Origin: a virus
Lineage: Duplodnaviria > Heunggongvirae > Uroviricota > Caudoviricetes
Virus record (IMG/VR): IMGVR_UViG_2778261347_000025
Direction: 5' to 3' (one strand)
Length of the DNA stretch: 5,215 bases
Each line of letters opens with the position of its first letter. The first letter of the stretch is position 1. A model generated the notes under the pieces. The model searched no databases. It was not told the DNA's origin and saw only the letters and a program-made list of their open reading frames with translations. Below are positions 1-5,215 of the stretch, in pieces. The position numbers and the translations under genes are program-made.

Positions 1-1239
1 ATGAGCAGGGCAATTCATAGACTTAGCGACACTCTTTTACGAAAATTAAGCGGATCACCAACCACAAAAAACACCTTTTTTAATGATGGTGGCAACCTTA
101 GCGTAAGGCATTCAACCAATGGCCTGTTAACCTGGTATTTCACTTACAGGGCCGGAACAGGCAGGAAGGTAGCCCCTGAACGTCTGAGGCTGGGAAATTA
201 TCCAGATTTGAGCCTGAAAGCAGCCAGGGAAAAAGCGTCGCAGTGTCGCGCCTGGCTTGCTGAGGGGAAAAATCCACGCCATGAGCTTAATCACACCGTA
301 CAGGAAGCGTTATCACCTGTTACGGTTAAGGAAGCGCTCACTTACTGGCTTGAATCGTACGCGAAGGAAAAGCGCACAGATTACGAATCTCTGAAAAGCC
401 GGATCAATACACACATAATCAGCCATATTGGTGCTATGCCGCTGGAAAAATGCGAGCTACGCCACTGGCTGACCTGTTTTGATCAGCTTGCTATGCGTAA
501 TCCGGTATCAGCAGGATTTTTGTTACAGGTATGCAAGCAGGCGCTTAAGTACTGCCGCAAACGACGCTACGCAATTACCAACGTTCTAGATGATATGGTT
601 GTAGGTGATGTTGGGAAAAAAGCAGAAATAAGCGAGCGCGTACTAACAAACAAGGAGCTTGGGGAATTACTACGCGCCCTGGATGAAAAAATTTACACAC
701 CGTACTACAGCGCCCTGATTCGCCTCCTGATTGTCTTCGGATGCCGTACCACTGAGCTAAGACGCTCTGAGGTCCAGGAATGGGATTTTACAGAAATGCT
801 CTGGACTGTGCCGAAAGAACACAGCAAAACGAAGGTAGCAATATTCAGGCCAATACCGGAAGCGATCTTGCCGTTCGTAACGAAGCTGGTGGAGCAGAAC
901 CGACACACGGGCTTATTACTCGGAGAACTGAAAGGGCAATCATCTGTATCAGAGTACGGAAGAACGGCACACAGACGCATTAATCAAGCCCTCTGGACGT
1001 TGCACGACATCCGGCACACGTTTACAACGATGCTGAACGATTTAGGCGTGGATCCTCATGTAGTGGAGCAGCTAACCGCGCACCAGTTGCCAGGAATGCA
1101 ACGAGTCTATAATCACTCCCGTTATCTCGATGCAAAACGTGACGCTCTTAATCTATGGGTTGAGCGTCTCGAGCTTCTCCAGAACAATGATGAAAAAATC
1201 GTTGTTATGACCCCGCGAATTTACTCCCAAAATTCTTGA
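1..1239 (+). CDS. int: Tyrosine-type site-specific integrase, P4-like (412 aa)
   Basis: ORF track 1..1239. N-terminal pattern LSD..GGNLSVR..WYFTYR..LRLGNYPDLSLKAAREKA resembles the P4 integrase arm domain. C-terminal catalytic region has R in GCRTTELRR, H-x-x-R in HDIRHTF and the likely nucleophile Y in RVYNHSRY. ATG sits at window position 1, so a start further upstream cannot be excluded. Confidence 0.9.
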   Translation: MSRAIHRLSDTLLRKLSGSPTTKNTFFNDGGNLSVRHSTNGLLTWYFTYRAGTGRKVAPERLRLGNYPDLSLKAAREKASQCRAWLAEGKNPRHELNHTVQEALSPVTVKEALTYWLESYAKEKRTDYESLKSRINTHIISHIGAMPLEKCELRHWLTCFDQLAMRNPVSAGFLLQVCKQALKYCRKRRYAITNVLDDMVVGDVGKKAEISERVLTNKELGELLRALDEKIYTPYYSALIRLLIVFGCRTTELRRSEVQEWDFTEMLWTVPKEHSKTKVAIFRPIPEAILPFVTKLVEQNRHTGLLLGELKGQSSVSEYGRTAHRRINQALWTLHDIRHTFTTMLNDLGVDPHVVEQLTAHQLPGMQRVYNHSRYLDAKRDALNLWVERLELLQNNDEKIVVMTPRIYSQNS

Positions 1240-1648: not shown

Positions 1649-1858
1649 ATGCGTGAAATAAATGAAGATCGCGTAATCCGTGAGGATGAATGTCGTAAGT
1701 TAACTGGAGTGTGCCGCACTACACGTTACGAACTGGAGAAAAAAGGGCGCTTTCCGTCACGTCTTAATCTGGGCGGTCGTTCTGTAGGGTGGCTGCTGTC
1801 CGAGGTTATGGAATGGGTTAAAAGCAGGGATCGTATTAATTCAGGTAAGGCAGCGTAG
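1649..1858 (+). CDS. alpA: AlpA-family phage/island transcriptional regulator (69 aa)
   Basis: Sequence MREINEDRVIREDECRKLTGVCRTTRYELEKKGRFPSRLNLGGRSVGWLLSEVMEWV matches the AlpA helix-turn-helix pattern (..TG.SRST.Y.L...G.FP....LG.RSV.W...EV..W). ATG at 1649 has AGGT 6 nt upstream. The track ORF starts at GTG 1562, but that N-terminal extension is not AlpA-like and would make the protein longer than typical AlpA (about 70 aa). Confidence 0.85.
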   Translation: MREINEDRVIREDECRKLTGVCRTTRYELEKKGRFPSRLNLGGRSVGWLLSEVMEWVKSRDRINSGKAA

Positions 1859-1874
1859 GGGGAACATATGACAC

Positions 1875-1904
1875 ATAAAACAAAGGCGACCTGGGGCGGT
1901 CGCC
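1875..1904 (-). terminator. Rho-independent terminator, oriented for the minus strand (weakly bidirectional)
   Basis: GC-rich stem GGCGACC (1885-1891) / GGTCGCC (1898-1904) with a 6-nt loop. On the minus strand the stem is followed immediately by TTTGTTTTAT (1884-1875). On the plus strand, 26 nt after the alpA stop, the trailing tract is only AGTTTGG. Confidence 0.5.
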
Positions 1905-1968
1905 AGTTTGGAAACACTAAACATAAGCATGGCAATGATAGCCTCTATCAGGCTGGTGGGCAATGCTA

Positions 1969-2145
1969 TCAGTCTGTTTCAGTGCGTTGCCATAACTGCG
2001 AAGCTCTCTCCTTTGATGAGTATTCTTTAAGGTACTTCTCAAGGGCAAAAGAACACGGCGCGAATCGTTCTGATTCATGCTCTTTCTTTCTGCGTCGTCT
2101 TTTTCGTGCAGGTGATGTTTTTTCGGTTGATTCTTCGTTGGTCAT
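1969..2145 (-). CDS. Hypothetical small highly charged protein (58 aa), or the C-terminal part of a longer interrupted ORF
   Basis: Hand-translated minus-strand ORF, ATG 2145 to TGA 1969: MTNEESTEKTSPARKRRRRKKEHESERFAPCSFALEKYLKEYSSKERASQLWQRTETD. Below the 60-aa track threshold. No convincing Shine-Dalgarno. In the same frame as the upstream ORF 2382..2203. Terminator lies 64 nt downstream. Confidence 0.3.
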   Translation of the reverse strand: MTNEESTEKTSPARKRRRRKKEHESERFAPCSFALEKYLKEYSSKERASQLWQRTETD

Positions 2146-2202
2146 TGTGTGCGCCTGTAAAGCAATGCGCCGGAGTTCCTCACACCACGGCGCTGATAGT
2201 GA

Positions 2203-2382
2203 TTATTCTGATTCTTTGGCCTTGCGACGCTGGCGGCGTTTGATCTCGCCTCGCATGGCTGTAACGATAAATTGCGCAGTGCTCTCGCCTGTTTCTTTTA
2301 CTTGCTCCATAGCCTCAACAACTTCATGCGGGGCGCGAGCCTGTAATTTCTGTGATTTGTTATTGATATGGTCTCTTTCCAT
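2203..2382 (-). CDS. Small DNA-binding protein candidate with a ribbon-helix-helix-like pattern (59 aa)
   Basis: Hand-translated minus-strand ORF, ATG 2382 to TAA 2203: MERDHINNKSQKLQARAPHEVVEAMEQVKETGESTAQFIVTAMRGEIKRRQRRKAKESE. AAGGGA Shine-Dalgarno (2395-2390) 7 nt upstream of the ATG. Layout is a short basic N-terminal segment, helix, G-x-S turn, second helix with hydrophobic face, then a basic tail, as in Arc/CopG/MetJ-type RHH proteins (inferred by eye). The coding strand is purine-rich. Confidence 0.5.
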   Translation of the reverse strand: MERDHINNKSQKLQARAPHEVVEAMEQVKETGESTAQFIVTAMRGEIKRRQRRKAKESE

Positions 2383-2401
2383 TTCTGGTTCCCTTTGTGA
2401 T

Positions 2402-2483
2402 TACTGGAATCCAGTATACACGAAAAAGACCAAAACAAAACGCTTGAAGTGGATTCCACTTAGTGATTATACTGGAATCCAGT
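2402..2483. promoter_or_regulatory. Operator-like array of three palindromes sharing a TGGAWTCCA core
   Basis: Read directly: TACTGGA-A-TCCAGTA (2402-2416), AAGTGGA-T-TCCACTT (2447-2461), ACTGGA-A-TCCAGT (2471-2483). Centres at 2409, 2454 and 2477 give 45- and 23-bp spacing. Sites 1 and 3 share the upstream flank GTGATT(A). The array lies between the minus-strand ORF start (2382) and the plus-strand operon. Confidence 0.55.
2444..2473 (+). promoter_or_regulatory. Candidate sigma70 promoter for the plus-strand operon (TTGAAG -18- TATACT)
   Basis: -35-like TTGAAG (2444-2449) and -10-like TATACT (2468-2473). It overlaps palindromes 2 and 3. On the opposite strand a perfect TATAAT (reverse complement of 2466-2471) could be the -10 for the minus-strand unit. 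Hexamer matches only, no experimental support. Confidence 0.3.
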
Positions 2484-2578
2484 TGAGTGTTTATCACTCA
2501 ATGCAAACGAGGCTGAAAAGGATTGCCGTCCTTTCGCAGCCTCTGACCACCAACGATAGCGAAAGTATCGAGGTAGCT

Positions 2579-2782
2579 ATGAGAAATCATACCATACACC
2601 CGCAAGGGCGGGACTCGCACAACCTGAATAAATACATCTGGCGTTTTATCGCCCTGAGCACGGCACAACCGCGCGTGATTACCATCGAGGCCACCAGCGA
2701 ACAGGAAACGCGTCAGCAATCTCCTGATGGCTGCGTGATGGTATTCGCCGCCCGTATTCGTCAGGGGGTGTTCCATGCCTGA
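2579..2782 (+). CDS. Hypothetical small protein (67 aa), first gene of the primase operon
   Basis: ATG 2579 preceded by GAGGT (2570-2574). Translation MRNHTIHPQGRDSHNLNKYIWRFIALSTAQPRVITIEATSEQETRQQSPDGCVMVFAARIRQGVFHA, with E. coli-preferred codons (CTG, CCG, CGT, GCC, ACC). It is the 3' end of the track ORF 1868..2782. An in-frame ATG at 2501 (93 aa) lacks a ribosome-binding site. Confidence 0.5.
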   Translation: MRNHTIHPQGRDSHNLNKYIWRFIALSTAQPRVITIEATSEQETRQQSPDGCVMVFAARIRQGVFHA

Positions 2783-3095
2783 CATGACCAATTACCAGTA
2801 CCTGATTAATCCGCATTTTAACTGTGAGCATGATATTGCTAAAAAAGTTTATTCCGCTGCGGATGGGGCTACTGACAATATATCAATGGGTATTGCGTCA
2901 ATTGGTAGCCTGATGTGGCATGCGTCAGAAAATAAGGAATATGACGAAAAGACCATGCGCATTGATATGGGTAATATCGGTTTGTTACTGGCAATGCTTG
3001 GGCAGTTTGATATTTCGTTACGGTGCACCATTGAAAATGCCACAGATGCATTAAATGCCATAGAGAAAGCGAATACTGATTCAAATCGGGGATAA
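2775..3095 (+). CDS. Hypothetical acidic protein (106 aa)
   Basis: ORF track 2775..3095. AGGGGG (2763-2768) sits 6 nt upstream of ATG 2775. The start overlaps the previous stop by 8 nt (ATGCCTGA), indicating translational coupling. No family recognised by eye. Confidence 0.6.
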   Translation: MPDMTNYQYLINPHFNCEHDIAKKVYSAADGATDNISMGIASIGSLMWHASENKEYDEKTMRIDMGNIGLLLAMLGQFDISLRCTIENATDALNAIEKANTDSNRG

Positions 3096-3101
3096 ATAAT
3101 C

Positions 3102-3401
3102 ATGAGAACTTATTTATCTGGCTTGACTGCCAGCGGTTATGCACACCCCAAAATTATCCCCGGCGCTATTTATCTGGATAAGAACGGTAACAGAGTAACG
3201 GTAAAAGAACTGATGTTTGACCGTGTGTATTTTATCCGTGATGGCTATTCATTTCATAGTTCGCTGAACGTGGAGATCTTTATTAGCAGATTCAGGCGGG
3301 AAATCCCGCTTTCCAGAAATAACCATGTGTCATGTATCGATGTTGATAAAAAACTACAGGAACTGAAAAACATGATTGCCGCGTGGAGAGAGCAGAAATG
3401 A
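3102..3401 (+). CDS. Hypothetical protein (99 aa) immediately upstream of, and coupled to, the primase
   Basis: ORF track 3102..3401. GGGGA lies upstream of ATG 3102. Its TGA stop (3399-3401) overlaps the primase ATG (3398-3400) as ATGA. No family recognised by eye. Confidence 0.6.
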   Translation: MRTYLSGLTASGYAHPKIIPGAIYLDKNGNRVTVKELMFDRVYFIRDGYSFHSSLNVEIFISRFRREIPLSRNNHVSCIDVDKKLQELKNMIAAWREQK

Positions 3402-5215
3402 AAAAAGCGCCAAATTTAAAACACCAGCCACGTGACAAAATGACGGAAGTCATCATTTTTGCGGGTAGTGATGCGTGGGCACATGCGAAGCAGTGGCAGG
3501 AACAGGACGGGCGACTGGCTGGCGATAACGTGCCACCTGTCTGGCTTGGAGAGCAACAACTTGCCGAACTGGACAACCTGCAAATCGTACCGGACGGACG
3601 CTATCGCGTGCGTCTCTATCAGGCGGGGTTATTGAGTCCGGGGCTTGTTAATACCATCGGGCAGAAACTGGCAGTGGCAGGTGTCAGGGATGCTGATTAT
3701 TACCCTGAAGGAATGCACAGCCAGAAACGGGAGAACTGGCGCGAATATCTGGAACGTGAACGGGCAGAGCAGGCGGAAAAGAAAAAGGTAGTTGAACTGC
3801 CTGTAAAGAAAAAAGAGCGGGTAAAAGACGATAACGCTTCATCACTGGCGCTTAACCAGATGGGAGCAAGTCAACGCGGCGAAGTTCTCCTGGCACATTA
3901 TGGCGGTGAACTGGCGATTCATGCTGACTCTGACACTGTTCACTATTACAACGGCGTTGTATGGGAGCCAGTACAGGATAAAGAATTACAGCGAGCTATG
4001 GCACAGATTTTCATTGATGCGGAGATCAGCTATTCGCAGAACGCCATTAAATCGGCGGTCGATACCATGAAGTTAAGTTTGCCTGTAATGGGGAATACAG
4101 CCCGTAACCTGATTGGATTCAGTAACGGTGTTTTTGATACCCGGACAGGCGATTTTCGGGAGCATAACAAAAACGACTGGTTGTTAATTGCCAGTGAATT
4201 ACCTTTCAGCCCACCAGCAGAGGGGGAAACGCTGGCAACACATGCGCCGAATTTCTGGAAGTGGTTACGCCGTTCGGTGGCTGAGAATGACCGCAAGGCG
4301 GATCGCGTACTGGCTGCATTATTCATGGTGCTGGCGAACCGGTACGACTGGCAGTTATTCATTGAGGTAACAGGTCCAGGGGGAAGTGGTAAAAGCGTGA
4401 TGGCGGAGATTTGCACCATGCTGGCGGGTAAGGCCAACACGGTATCGGCAAGCATGAAGGCGCTGGAAGATGCCAGGGAACGCGCGTTAGTGGTTGGCTT
4501 TTCGCTGATTATCATGCCGGATATGACCCGTTACGCTGGTGATGGCGCAGGAATTAAGGCCATTACAGGCGGTGACAAGGTGGCAATCGACCCGAAGCAT
4601 AAAGCCCCCTACTCAACACGCATTCAGGCGGTAGTGTTGGCGGTGAACAATAACGCCATGTCATTCAGTGACCGCAGCGGGGGGATTTCACGTCGTCGGG
4701 TGATATTCAATTTTTCGGAGGTTGTACCGGAAAACGAACGCGACCCCATGCTGGCAGAAAAAATAGAAGGAGAGCTGGCGGTTGTGATTCGCCACCTGCT
4801 TACTCGTTTTTCTGACCAGGACGAAGCTAAACGCCTGCTGTATGAGCAGCAGAAATCAGAAGAAGCTCTGGTGATAAAACGCGAGGGCGATTCGCTGGTG
4901 GACTTCTGCGGCTATCTCATGTCGTCGGTAATGTGTGATGGTCTGTTAGTGGGTAATGCCGAAATTATTCCGTTCAGTCCGCGCAGGTATCTTTATCACG
5001 CCTATCTGGCATATATGAGGGCACACGGATTCGGTAAACCTGTAACACTGACGCGCTTCGGTAAAGATATGCCGGGGGCAATGGCGGAATATGGCAGGGA
5101 GTATATGAAACGGAAAACGAAGCACGGTTTGCGTTCAAATGTGACCCTGACAGAGGATTCAGAAGACTGGATGCCATCATGTGCATCGGTCACAAATGAC
5201 GATGGAAAAAATTAA
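3398..5215 (+). CDS. Replication protein: P4-family primase / SF3-helicase-type NTPase (605 aa)
   Basis: Track ORF 3383..5215 begins at a GTG; the more likely start is ATG 3398 (MKKAPNLKHQ...) with GGAGAG 7 nt upstream. Walker A GPGGSGKS at 4373-4396, followed by a hydrophobic-D segment LIIMPD (4505-4522), as in the phage/plasmid primase P4-family C-terminal domain. The N-terminal roughly 120 aa (EVIIFAGSDAW ... RDADYY) has an E...DxD pattern compatible with a small Toprim-like domain (tentative), then a K/E-rich linker. Stop TAA is at 5213-5215, the window end. Confidence 0.85.
   Translation: MKKAPNLKHQPRDKMTEVIIFAGSDAWAHAKQWQEQDGRLAGDNVPPVWLGEQQLAELDNLQIVPDGRYRVRLYQAGLLSPGLVNTIGQKLAVAGVRDADYYPEGMHSQKRENWREYLERERAEQAEKKKVVELPVKKKERVKDDNASSLALNQMGASQRGEVLLAHYGGELAIHADSDTVHYYNGVVWEPVQDKELQRAMAQIFIDAEISYSQNAIKSAVDTMKLSLPVMGNTARNLIGFSNGVFDTRTGDFREHNKNDWLLIASELPFSPPAEGETLATHAPNFWKWLRRSVAENDRKADRVLAALFMVLANRYDWQLFIEVTGPGGSGKSVMAEICTMLAGKANTVSASMKALEDARERALVVGFSLIIMPDMTRYAGDGAGIKAITGGDKVAIDPKHKAPYSTRIQAVVLAVNNNAMSFSDRSGGISRRRVIFNFSEVVPENERDPMLAEKIEGELAVVIRHLLTRFSDQDEAKRLLYEQQKSEEALVIKREGDSLVDFCGYLMSSVMCDGLLVGNAEIIPFSPRRYLYHAYLAYMRAHGFGKPVTLTRFGKDMPGAMAEYGREYMKRKTKHGLRSNVTLTEDSEDWMPSCASVTNDDGKN

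Follow-up and report, generated by a model that had tools for sequence, protein, structure and literature searches.

Three small genes, here called genes 1 to 3, lie directly in front of the primase gene in a 5,215-nucleotide (nt) stretch of caudoviral DNA (IMG/VR record IMGVR_UViG_2778261347_000025; hereafter the window). The element that carries them is a phage-inducible chromosomal island (PICI) of the EcCICFT073 family, and the three genes probably constitute the 5' part of the early regulation and replication operon of this island. Gene 1 falls into the Kil/Icd family and gene 3 into the DUF4222/RgdR family. Gene 2 is the only truly undescribed gene of the three and belongs to a small uncharacterised satellite family. 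Along the window, the features are the following (protein lengths in amino acids, aa; ORF, open reading frame):

1-1239, plus strand: tyrosine integrase of the island (Pfam Phage_integrase and Arm-DNA-bind_3)
1649-1858, plus strand: AlpA-family regulator (PF05930, E 1.7e-16), with an activator role known from EcCICFT073 (PMC6092414)
1868-2782, plus strand: eta-like ORF of 304 codons, which starts 10 nt past the alpA stop codon behind a GGGGG Shine-Dalgarno (SD) sequence
1969-2145, minus strand: basic protein of 58 aa, second gene of the divergent operon (phrog_21027, unknown function)
2203-2382, minus strand: YlcI/YnfO-family ribbon-helix-helix protein of 59 aa (NF041551, E 2.4e-20)
2509-2543, plus strand: conserved stem-loop, part of the 5' leader of gene 1 (RNAalifold and pair counts)
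2579-2782, plus strand: gene 1, small basic Kil/Icd-family protein of 67 aa, isoelectric point (pI) 10.0 (NF033153)
2775-3095, plus strand: gene 2, acidic protein of 106 aa, pI 4.7, predicted to be all-helical, in a variable accessory slot
3102-3401, plus strand: gene 3, basic DUF4222/RgdR-family protein of 99 aa, pI 9.7 (PF13973)
3398-5215, plus strand: Pri-Rep replicase of 605 aa (Pfam D5_N, DUF5906 and Pox_D5; phrog_864)

Each of the three small genes has its own SD sequence, which is GAGG for gene 1 (5 nt before the ATG) and GGGGG for gene 2. Gene 1 overlaps gene 2 by 8 nt (2775-2782), a gap of 6 nt separates gene 2 from gene 3, and the stop codon of gene 3 overlaps the primase ATG (3398) in the sequence ATGA (3398-3401). 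The coordinates, both overlaps and the gap had been given in an earlier note made from the letters of this DNA, and every one of them holds. At the corresponding locus of the Escherichia coli O157 strain AR-0427, which is 99.9% identical, the RefSeq coding sequences are exactly genes 1 to 3 and the primase gene. For the ratio of non-synonymous to synonymous polymorphism (pN/pS), gene 1 has values of 0.29-0.47 and gene 3 of 0.20-0.34, and gene 2 has 0.34 in the most informative pair and about 1 in two pairs with only 5-9 differences. All three are real coding genes. Doubt that one of the ORFs is a gene at all would have to attach to gene 2, given its missing family assignment, its structure model of low confidence and the two low-divergence pairs with a pN/pS of about 1. 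Such a doubt has next to no probability: the remote homologues of gene 2 (25-42% identity) keep its length, its motif and its operon position, the most informative pair has a pN/pS of 0.34, and SD sequences and conserved coupling are found for all three genes.

The arrangement was compared among 11 related islands (the window and the loci L002, L004-L009 and L019-L021). The Icd-like gene comes first and the DUF4222 gene last in all 11, and in all 11 the DUF4222 stop codon overlaps the replicase start by 4 nt and the gap preceding DUF4222 measures 4-6 nt. In 10 of the 11, the Icd-like gene overlaps the gene behind it by 4-11 nt, the exception being L020, where a second Icd-like gene and then a gap of 19 nt follow. 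Because these overlaps and gaps recur across the related islands, the tight packing of the genes is not due to chance. The proposal in the earlier note that the genes are coupled to each other and to the primase is thereby borne out, as the genes are co-oriented and their overlaps are conserved in the islands. Between the Icd-like and DUF4222 genes lie one to five small ORFs of unrelated families, mostly with 8-nt overlaps. The replicase body likewise differs by island (D5_N/DUF5906 primase, DUF927, RepA helicase or P4-type primase) behind an N-terminal domain of about 140 aa that is common to all 11. For instance, genes 1 to 3 precede a DUF927 replicase in L004, the integrase of which differs from that of the window, and gene 2 is paired with an RgdR-type DUF4222 in L020. 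Since genes 1 to 3, gene 2, DUF4222 and the replicase combine differently from island to island, the modules of the cassette recombine independently. Where a survey of islands had been called for to see whether the cassette is conserved or variable, both turn out to apply: the middle slot is variable, in keeping with an accessory slot, whereas genes 1 and 3 are kept across islands.

In the island L020 (E. coli JNEC-KY203, 1880-3153), the Icd-like gene is present twice in tandem, gene 2 is truncated at its 5' end, and the DUF4222 gene is a chimera, of which the first 12 residues are of the window type and the remainder of the RgdR type. This chimera shows that recombination also takes place inside the cassette genes. 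Residues 1-140 of the replicase (3398-3820) form a separate N-terminal module (phrog_2850, unknown) that is 69% identical to the corresponding part of the DUF927-type replicase of Sakai Sp7, the alignment between the two replicases being limited to the first ~140 aa. The module is found on D5_N/DUF5906, DUF927, RepA helicase and P4-type replicases, and at the DNA level no other block is as well conserved between distant islands; the module has no Pfam match, and a sequence search of the PDB returned nothing meaningful. Ten proteins of other islands (nine from the middle or pre-replicase slots and one eta-like ORF) were without a Pfam match.

The window is the left half of an island of about 9 kb at the cspD/yljB-clpS junction of AR-0427. 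This island encodes, in order, the integrase, AlpA, two small minus-strand genes, genes 1 to 3, the primase, three hypothetical proteins, TerS and the major capsid protein. The latter two are its only packaging genes, and it is without lysis or tail genes. Co-oriented int and alpA genes at the left end followed by pri-rep, together with a size within the range of ~8-15 kb, are the hallmarks of a PICI. The suggestion in the earlier note of a satellite or island element is thus confirmed by the order int-alpA-...-primase-terS-capsid and can be narrowed to a PICI. The PICI cycle is activated by AlpA and replication is driven by Pri-Rep; overexpression of AlpA induces EcCICFT073, and uncontrolled replication impairs growth (Fillol-Salom et al.; PMC6092414). 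A perfect 12-nt inverted repeat, ATAAATCGTCGA / TCGACGATTTAT, with a 13-nt spacer lies between int and alpA (1281-1317) and could be the int terminator or a protein-binding site.

The closest known relatives have the same gene order. EcCICFT073 (c1493 region) carries a minus-strand YlcI/YnfO gene, an Icd-like gene, four small ORFs, DUF4222 and a primase gene with a 4-nt overlap, and Sakai Sp7/CP-933C/OI-51 (ECs1577-ECs1582) carries int, alpA, YlcI/YnfO, an Icd-like gene, small ORFs, DUF4222 and an ATGA-coupled Pri-Rep. In EcCICFT073-type islands (L005-L009), gene 1 has an Icd-like counterpart of ~90% identity, the one of Sakai (ECs1577) being more divergent, and the EcCICFT073 and Sp7 replicases have the N-terminal domain in common with the window replicase. 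Conversely, the middle slot holds one gene in the window (gene 2) and three or four unrelated genes in EcCICFT073 and Sp7, the replicase body is D5_N/DUF5906 in the window and DUF927 in Sp7, and the integration site is cspD-clpS for the window and roxA-phoQ for the EcCICFT073/Sp7 type. With positions 2380-3820 of the window as the query in a distant-mode BLAST search of 5426 complete E. coli genomes, related cassette DNA was found in 1894 (35%), with up to seven copies per genome, and a single match spanned at least 80% of the query in 446. Conversely, no DNA match to the window was found in a phage genome collection, in which gene 1 matched only one satellite-sized 'phage' record and gene 3 matched none.

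According to the earlier note, no motif could be assigned in any of the three proteins. This does not stand for genes 1 and 3. Gene 1 scores 64.8 bits against the Icd/Kil model NF033153 (cutoff 25), against which P1 Icd scores 52.6 bits and residues 85-132 of P4 ORF137 (the kil region) score 73.9 bits. By sequence profile, and at that level only, gene 1 is thus assigned to the Icd/Kil family, which also contains P1 Icd and P4 Kil. It is ~90% identical across islands whose middle genes differ. In the operon, it is the ORF that is translated first, and it overlaps its downstream neighbour. A sequence search of the PDB gave nothing meaningful. The PHROGs to which gene 1 belongs (phrog_6196 and phrog_1743) are labelled 'transcriptional repressor', which is misleading for proteins of the Kil/Icd family; the label appears to descend from the obsolete annotation 'cI protein (ORF137)' of P4.

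At the same time, gene 1 is nested in a longer frame, as it consists of the last 67 codons of the 304-codon eta-like ORF. The eta-like ORF has no in-frame stop codon, compared with 17 and 24 in the other two plus-strand frames, and none of 300 dinucleotide shuffles matched its openness. Six distant PICI loci have eta-like ORFs of 276-407 codons that are likewise open beyond 300 shuffles, and the N-terminus is conserved in distant PICI loci as 'KTKA..GRQ'. On the opposite strand, the frame is overlapped by the genes for the YlcI/YnfO protein and the 58-aa protein, with the third codon positions of both strands coinciding. Five or six distant PICI loci (L012-L018) likewise have a YlcI/YnfO gene embedded antisense in an eta-like ORF. 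Just downstream of alpA (1931-1976), in a region shared by the beginning of the eta-like ORF and the 3' part of the gene for the 58-aa protein, there are two pairs of short direct repeats, GGCAATGATA/GGCAATGCTA spaced by 28 nt and CTATCAGGCTG/CTATCAGTCTG spaced by 21 nt.

The cassette had been described as lying downstream of a palindromic control region, and this is correct. Three palindromes, TACTGGAATCCAGTA (2402-2416), AAGTGGATTCCACTT (2447-2461) and ACTGGAATCCAGT (2471-2483), are found where 0.24 are expected, and none of 300 shuffles reached three. They overlap a sigma70-like promoter on the plus strand (-35 at 2444, -10 at 2468-2473), of which the -35 element aligns in six islands, and they also overlap a predicted divergent promoter on the minus strand (2493-2466). 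Islands with another YlcI/YnfO allele have different palindromes in the same place, as would be expected if the palindromes were cognate operators. The YlcI/YnfO gene is transcribed divergently and lies antisense inside the eta-like ORF. An antisense-embedded homologue is present in six of seven distant loci and is in the same third-position register in the five that were tested. The YlcI/YnfO protein is the likely regulator that binds these operators. The 58-aa protein encoded behind it is very basic, with a KRRRRKK stretch, and has a homologue in Sakai Sp7; a terminator-like hairpin (1904-1885, minus strand) follows its gene.

Between the palindromes and gene 1, the leader folds more stably than expected (minimum free energy, z = -4.1). 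In the stem at 2509-2543, which has a smaller hairpin on either side (2482-2502 and 2554-2570), 7 of the 12 pairs change on both sides among seven islands, a count reached by none of 500 shuffles and compared with 0-2 in slid controls. These compensatory changes come mostly from the window's own, very different stem, so that the support is real and stems from few events. The stem-loop lies at the position of the CI/seq RNA elements of P4. No Rfam family matches it, and no C4/CI/isrK-type immunity RNA was found in Rfam at E <= 1 upstream of gene 1.

Gene 2 has no match in Pfam, NCBIfam, PADLOC or the PDB and corresponds to phrog_15327 (unknown function). A word-indexed search returned close E. 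coli relatives only, and an exhaustive HMMER search returned 21 clusters among 1.84 billion representatives. The remote homologues are ~100 aa long and 25-42% identical and have the core G..S.IG.LM..A....Y......DM...G. Of the seven loci in which relatives of gene 2 were located, one is in a Superficieibacter genome, and the other six are on IMG/VR contigs of 10-16 kb that carry capsid genes. All seven have the order alpA, an eta-like ORF ending in an Icd-like domain, zero or one small ORF, and the gene 2 relative; in L016, by way of exception, the Icd-like domain is out of frame with the long ORF. The gene 2 relative is followed by an unrelated protein of 112-122 aa with a 4-nt overlap onto the replicase. 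The AlphaFold2 model of gene 2 is unreliable (predicted local distance difference test, pLDDT, 54) and too poor for a fold search. The view that gene 2 is a diverged form of the ECs1580-type proteins of 77-80 aa, whose genes lie in front of RgdR-type genes (BLASTP E 0.012), was rejected on an hhalign probability of 0.08%. The earlier note had picked the whole cassette as the best candidate in the window for something undescribed, and this now applies to gene 2 only, as genes 1 and 3 belong to named families with studied members. As the opposite case, it had named a match of all three proteins to well-characterised families; two of the three are in named families, which are only partly characterised. 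Its position and variability, taken by themselves, suggest a role for gene 2 that is directed at the helper phage or the host.

Against Pfam DUF4222 (PF13973; gathering threshold 27), the score of gene 3 is 61.1 bits. It aligns end to end with RgdR (ECs1581) of enterohaemorrhagic E. coli (EHEC) O157:H7 at 31% identity over 99 aa (E 1e-12). RgdR is also 99 aa long and its gene also overlaps the primase start by ATGA, so that family, length and position agree while the alleles are only 31% identical. RgdR activates LEE1 (part of the enterocyte effacement locus, LEE) and type III secretion, acts as a repressor of motility and binds to DNA non-specifically, its RGD motif is important for the activation of type III secretion, and the CFT073 orthologue C1493 has the same activities (PMC3378721). 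An AlphaFold model of gene 3 built on 31 family members has a core at residues 20-66 (pLDDT 86-89) of four strands and a short helix, which is followed by a long C-terminal helix. The Foldseek matches agree on a Tudor/SH3-like (KOW-like) barrel as the fold class, with no significant match (best E 0.026), and a search of the viral predicted structures in BFVD returned only uncharacterised small phage proteins and DUF1653. A sequence search of the PDB gave nothing meaningful. The RNA-polymerase-binding Tudor-like domains of CarD/TRCF (RID) and of UvrD/PcrA (C-terminal domain) were considered as candidate relatives in structure and sequence. As a fold-class assignment from a predicted model, the Tudor/SH3-like barrel suggests binding to nucleic acid or RNA polymerase.

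The activities of RgdR and C1493 raise the question of whether gene 3 is a host-directed regulator of virulence and motility, i.e., a moron like RgdR itself or PerC/Pch, with its coupling to the primase being incidental. The same islands encode PerC-family regulators, and the closest match to the window is in an O157 strain. Against this, about one third of E. coli genomes have DUF4222 genes, among them those of commensals and of strains that lack LEE, and the fixed place and overlap of these genes in the operon point to a role in the cycle of the island itself. Moreover, gene 3 is without the RGD motif and 31% identical to RgdR, and its expression would be expected on induction only. A moron function is thus very improbable. 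Somewhat less improbable, and still unlikely, is that genes 2 and 3 do no more than assist replication, for example as origin-binding or remodelling factors or as helicase loaders or adaptors, and have no role towards helper or host. The ATGA coupling of gene 3 to the replicase in 11 of 11 islands is what would be expected of such a protein, gene 3 is basic and its homologue RgdR binds DNA non-specifically, and a similar Tudor barrel is found in UvrD/PcrA-type helicases. On the other hand, cloned EcCICFT073 rep and ori sufficed for plasmid replication, apparently without the upstream small genes (PMC6092414). The replicase bodies found behind DUF4222 are of at least four unrelated kinds, distant PICIs have a non-homologous protein in its place in front of replicases that carry the shared N-terminal domain, and the slot of gene 2 is far too variable for a core replication factor.

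The replacing protein is the one of 112-122 aa that lies directly 5' of the replicase in L012-L018 (for instance at 5310-5657 in L013), in the position of DUF4222 and with the same 4-nt coupling. It has a coiled-coil N-terminus, the sequence 'GLSTSKAEELAR' and a C-terminal 'KRKYGSKYWYHPxIGKF', and belongs to no Pfam family. That it is a form of DUF4222 was rejected, as hhalign found no relation between the two.

Outside the PICIs, the arrangement can be compared with those of P4 and P1. The left operon of P4 runs vis - eta/kil - CI RNA - epsilon - orf151 - orf106 - alpha. P4 and the window have in common an AlpA/Vis homologue, then a long ORF whose terminal ~65 codons are a Kil/Icd module (NF033153), an internal promoter inside this long ORF, and small genes with 8-nt overlaps that lead to the primase; in P4, 8-nt overlaps run from kil/eta to epsilon to orf151. 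The kil gene of P4 is 65 codons long, as Forti et al. reportedly described in 1999. Gene 2 takes the position of epsilon, the helper derepression gene, the 8-nt overlap of which is with the kil/eta stop codon. In P4, the cell-killing Kil is a truncated Eta, the alpA homologue and eta are coupled, and premature termination is prevented by translation of the eta/kil region (PMC10111431). Unlike P4, the window has no detectable CI/C4-type RNA and instead has an antisense YlcI/YnfO gene and palindromic operators inside the long ORF. Nor is the element a P4-like satellite, as the primase scores 97.6 bits against the P4 alpha-type model TIGR01613, under the cutoff of 108.7, and none of the P4 features sid, delta and psu is annotated in the AR-0427 island. 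In the immI operon of P1 (c4 RNA - icd - ant1/ant2), the Icd-family ORF is, like gene 1, the first to be translated and overlaps the next gene, in P1 by 4 nt. The P1 record describes icd as overlapping ant1 by ATGA and as 'apparently required for expression of ant'. Unlike immI, the window is without a c4 RNA, and the genes downstream are satellite accessory and replication genes and not an antirepressor. The cassette is a variant of the known PICI early operon, with a logic that resembles the left operon of P4 and, for gene 1, the immI operon of P1, and it differs from P4 and P1 by an antisense protein regulator and by having no RNA immunity element.

Another system with an Icd-like start is the 'prophage-encoded superinfection exclusion system' of E. 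coli ECOR61 (Silas et al., 2023), a six-gene block that, as in the window, begins with an Icd-like gene and includes a DNA primase gene. The phage accessory gene orf24 triggers cell death in ECOR61 via this 'prophage' locus. Suppressor transposon insertions fell in the Icd-like gene and the two following small genes (supplementary coordinates 9309-9675, 9131-9317 and 8940-9132), all six linked genes including the primase gene were needed, and removal of the Icd-like gene abolished the effect (bioRxiv 10.1101/2023.04.06.535777). In Sakai, ECs1577-ECs1579 have the same gene sizes (186 and 192 nt) and the same overlaps (8 and 1 nt). From these sizes and overlaps, we infer that the six genes are an Sp7-type operon (Icd-like gene, three small genes, RgdR and primase), the middle genes of which would be of the Sp7 type and not gene 2.

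These results could mean that the cassette is an abortive-infection or superinfection-exclusion system, in which a phage protein triggers expression and the cell is killed or arrested to block competitors. The orf24-triggered death, the suppressors, the need for all six genes with the Icd-like gene essential, and the agreement in gene sizes and overlaps with the Sakai Sp7 cassette all speak for it. The toxicity of Kil together with runaway replication, as reported for EcCICFT073, would explain the ECOR61 phenotype equally well, and the transposon insertions are polar on the primase gene. In addition, no PADLOC-DB defence model matches any of seven window proteins, the cassette is the conserved PICI core beside the replicase and not hotspot cargo, and the middle gene of the window differs from those of ECOR61. 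The ECOR61 phenotype is thus compatible with both readings, a dedicated exclusion system and satellite induction of the ordinary kind. Of the other explanations, exclusion is the one that deserves the most weight, and it is still clearly less probable than that genes 1 to 3 open the early operon of the island.

On the directly established gene structure, families, order and coupling of the genes, nested ORF, operators and leader hairpin, a model of this early operon can be proposed. Transcription would have two likely starts, an AlpA-controlled promoter upstream and the internal sigma70-like promoter at 2444-2473, and the three palindromic operators over the latter would probably be bound by the YlcI/YnfO protein. 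By analogy with P4 kil and P1 icd, translation of gene 1 would let ribosomes and RNA polymerase proceed downstream, and by the same analogy its product may be growth-inhibitory when the island is induced. Gene 2, judged by its position, would most likely target the helper phage or the host during induction. The ATGA overlap would allow gene 3 to be made stoichiometrically with the replicase, and its product would most likely be a cofactor of replication or transcription that associates with nucleic acid or RNA polymerase. In this case, the phenotypes of RgdR would be a spill-over of a gene 3-type activity onto host promoters. A bolder version joins three proposals: that the gene 2 family consists of effectors directed at the helper or the host, such as derepressors or interference factors, which would be analogous to P4 epsilon in function, unrelated to it in sequence and swapped among PICIs to match their helpers, that DUF4222 proteins are Tudor-like factors binding RNA polymerase or nucleic acid, and that the eta-like ORF and YlcI form a switch. 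This bolder version is improbable.

Several observations weigh against the assignment of genes 1 to 3 to an early operon of this kind. The family membership of gene 1 rests on one hidden Markov model of 48 columns; by pairwise BLAST, gene 1 gives no alignment with P1 Icd and reaches only E 0.25 with the P4 kil region. Because the eta-like ORF is broken in L002 and L005-L007, where the short Kil-like ORF is intact, the long eta-like form is dispensable in these islands. The likeness to P4 does not extend to the sequences of the following genes, as gene 2 has no similarity to P4 epsilon or orf151, and gene 3 has none to P4 ORF106/DUF5375, by BLASTP or hhalign. Nor does the RNA-immunity part of the analogy with P4 and P1 carry over, since no C4/CI-type RNA was found. 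In gene 3, K35 is kept and P20-G21-A22 replaces the RGD motif of RgdR (aa 20-22). Finally, the unrelated protein of 112-122 aa in the DUF4222 slot of distant PICIs means that DUF4222 is not universally required by replicases with the shared N-terminal domain.

For the window itself, the result is mostly a re-annotation, given that two of the three 'unknown' genes already had names. The main by-products are the link between RgdR, the PICIs and ECOR61, the Tudor-like fold of DUF4222, and the conserved sense/antisense pair of the eta-like ORF and the YlcI/YnfO gene. One operon thereby joins three literatures, on the PICI life cycle (AlpA and Pri-Rep), on EHEC virulence (RgdR) and on phage-triggered death (ECOR61). 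If the proposed model is true, the virulence effects of RgdR-type proteins would be by-products of satellite induction, the Kil/Icd module would explain the toxicity of induction, and the variable slot would be the place to seek the specificity factors between satellites and their helpers. In the bolder, improbable version, DUF4222, as a free-standing factor made with the replicase, would provide a mechanism for the sequence-independent effects of RgdR on LEE and motility, and the eta-like ORF and its antisense YlcI/YnfO gene would constitute an overlapping-gene switch that, in these islands, replaces the RNA immunity of P4 and P1.

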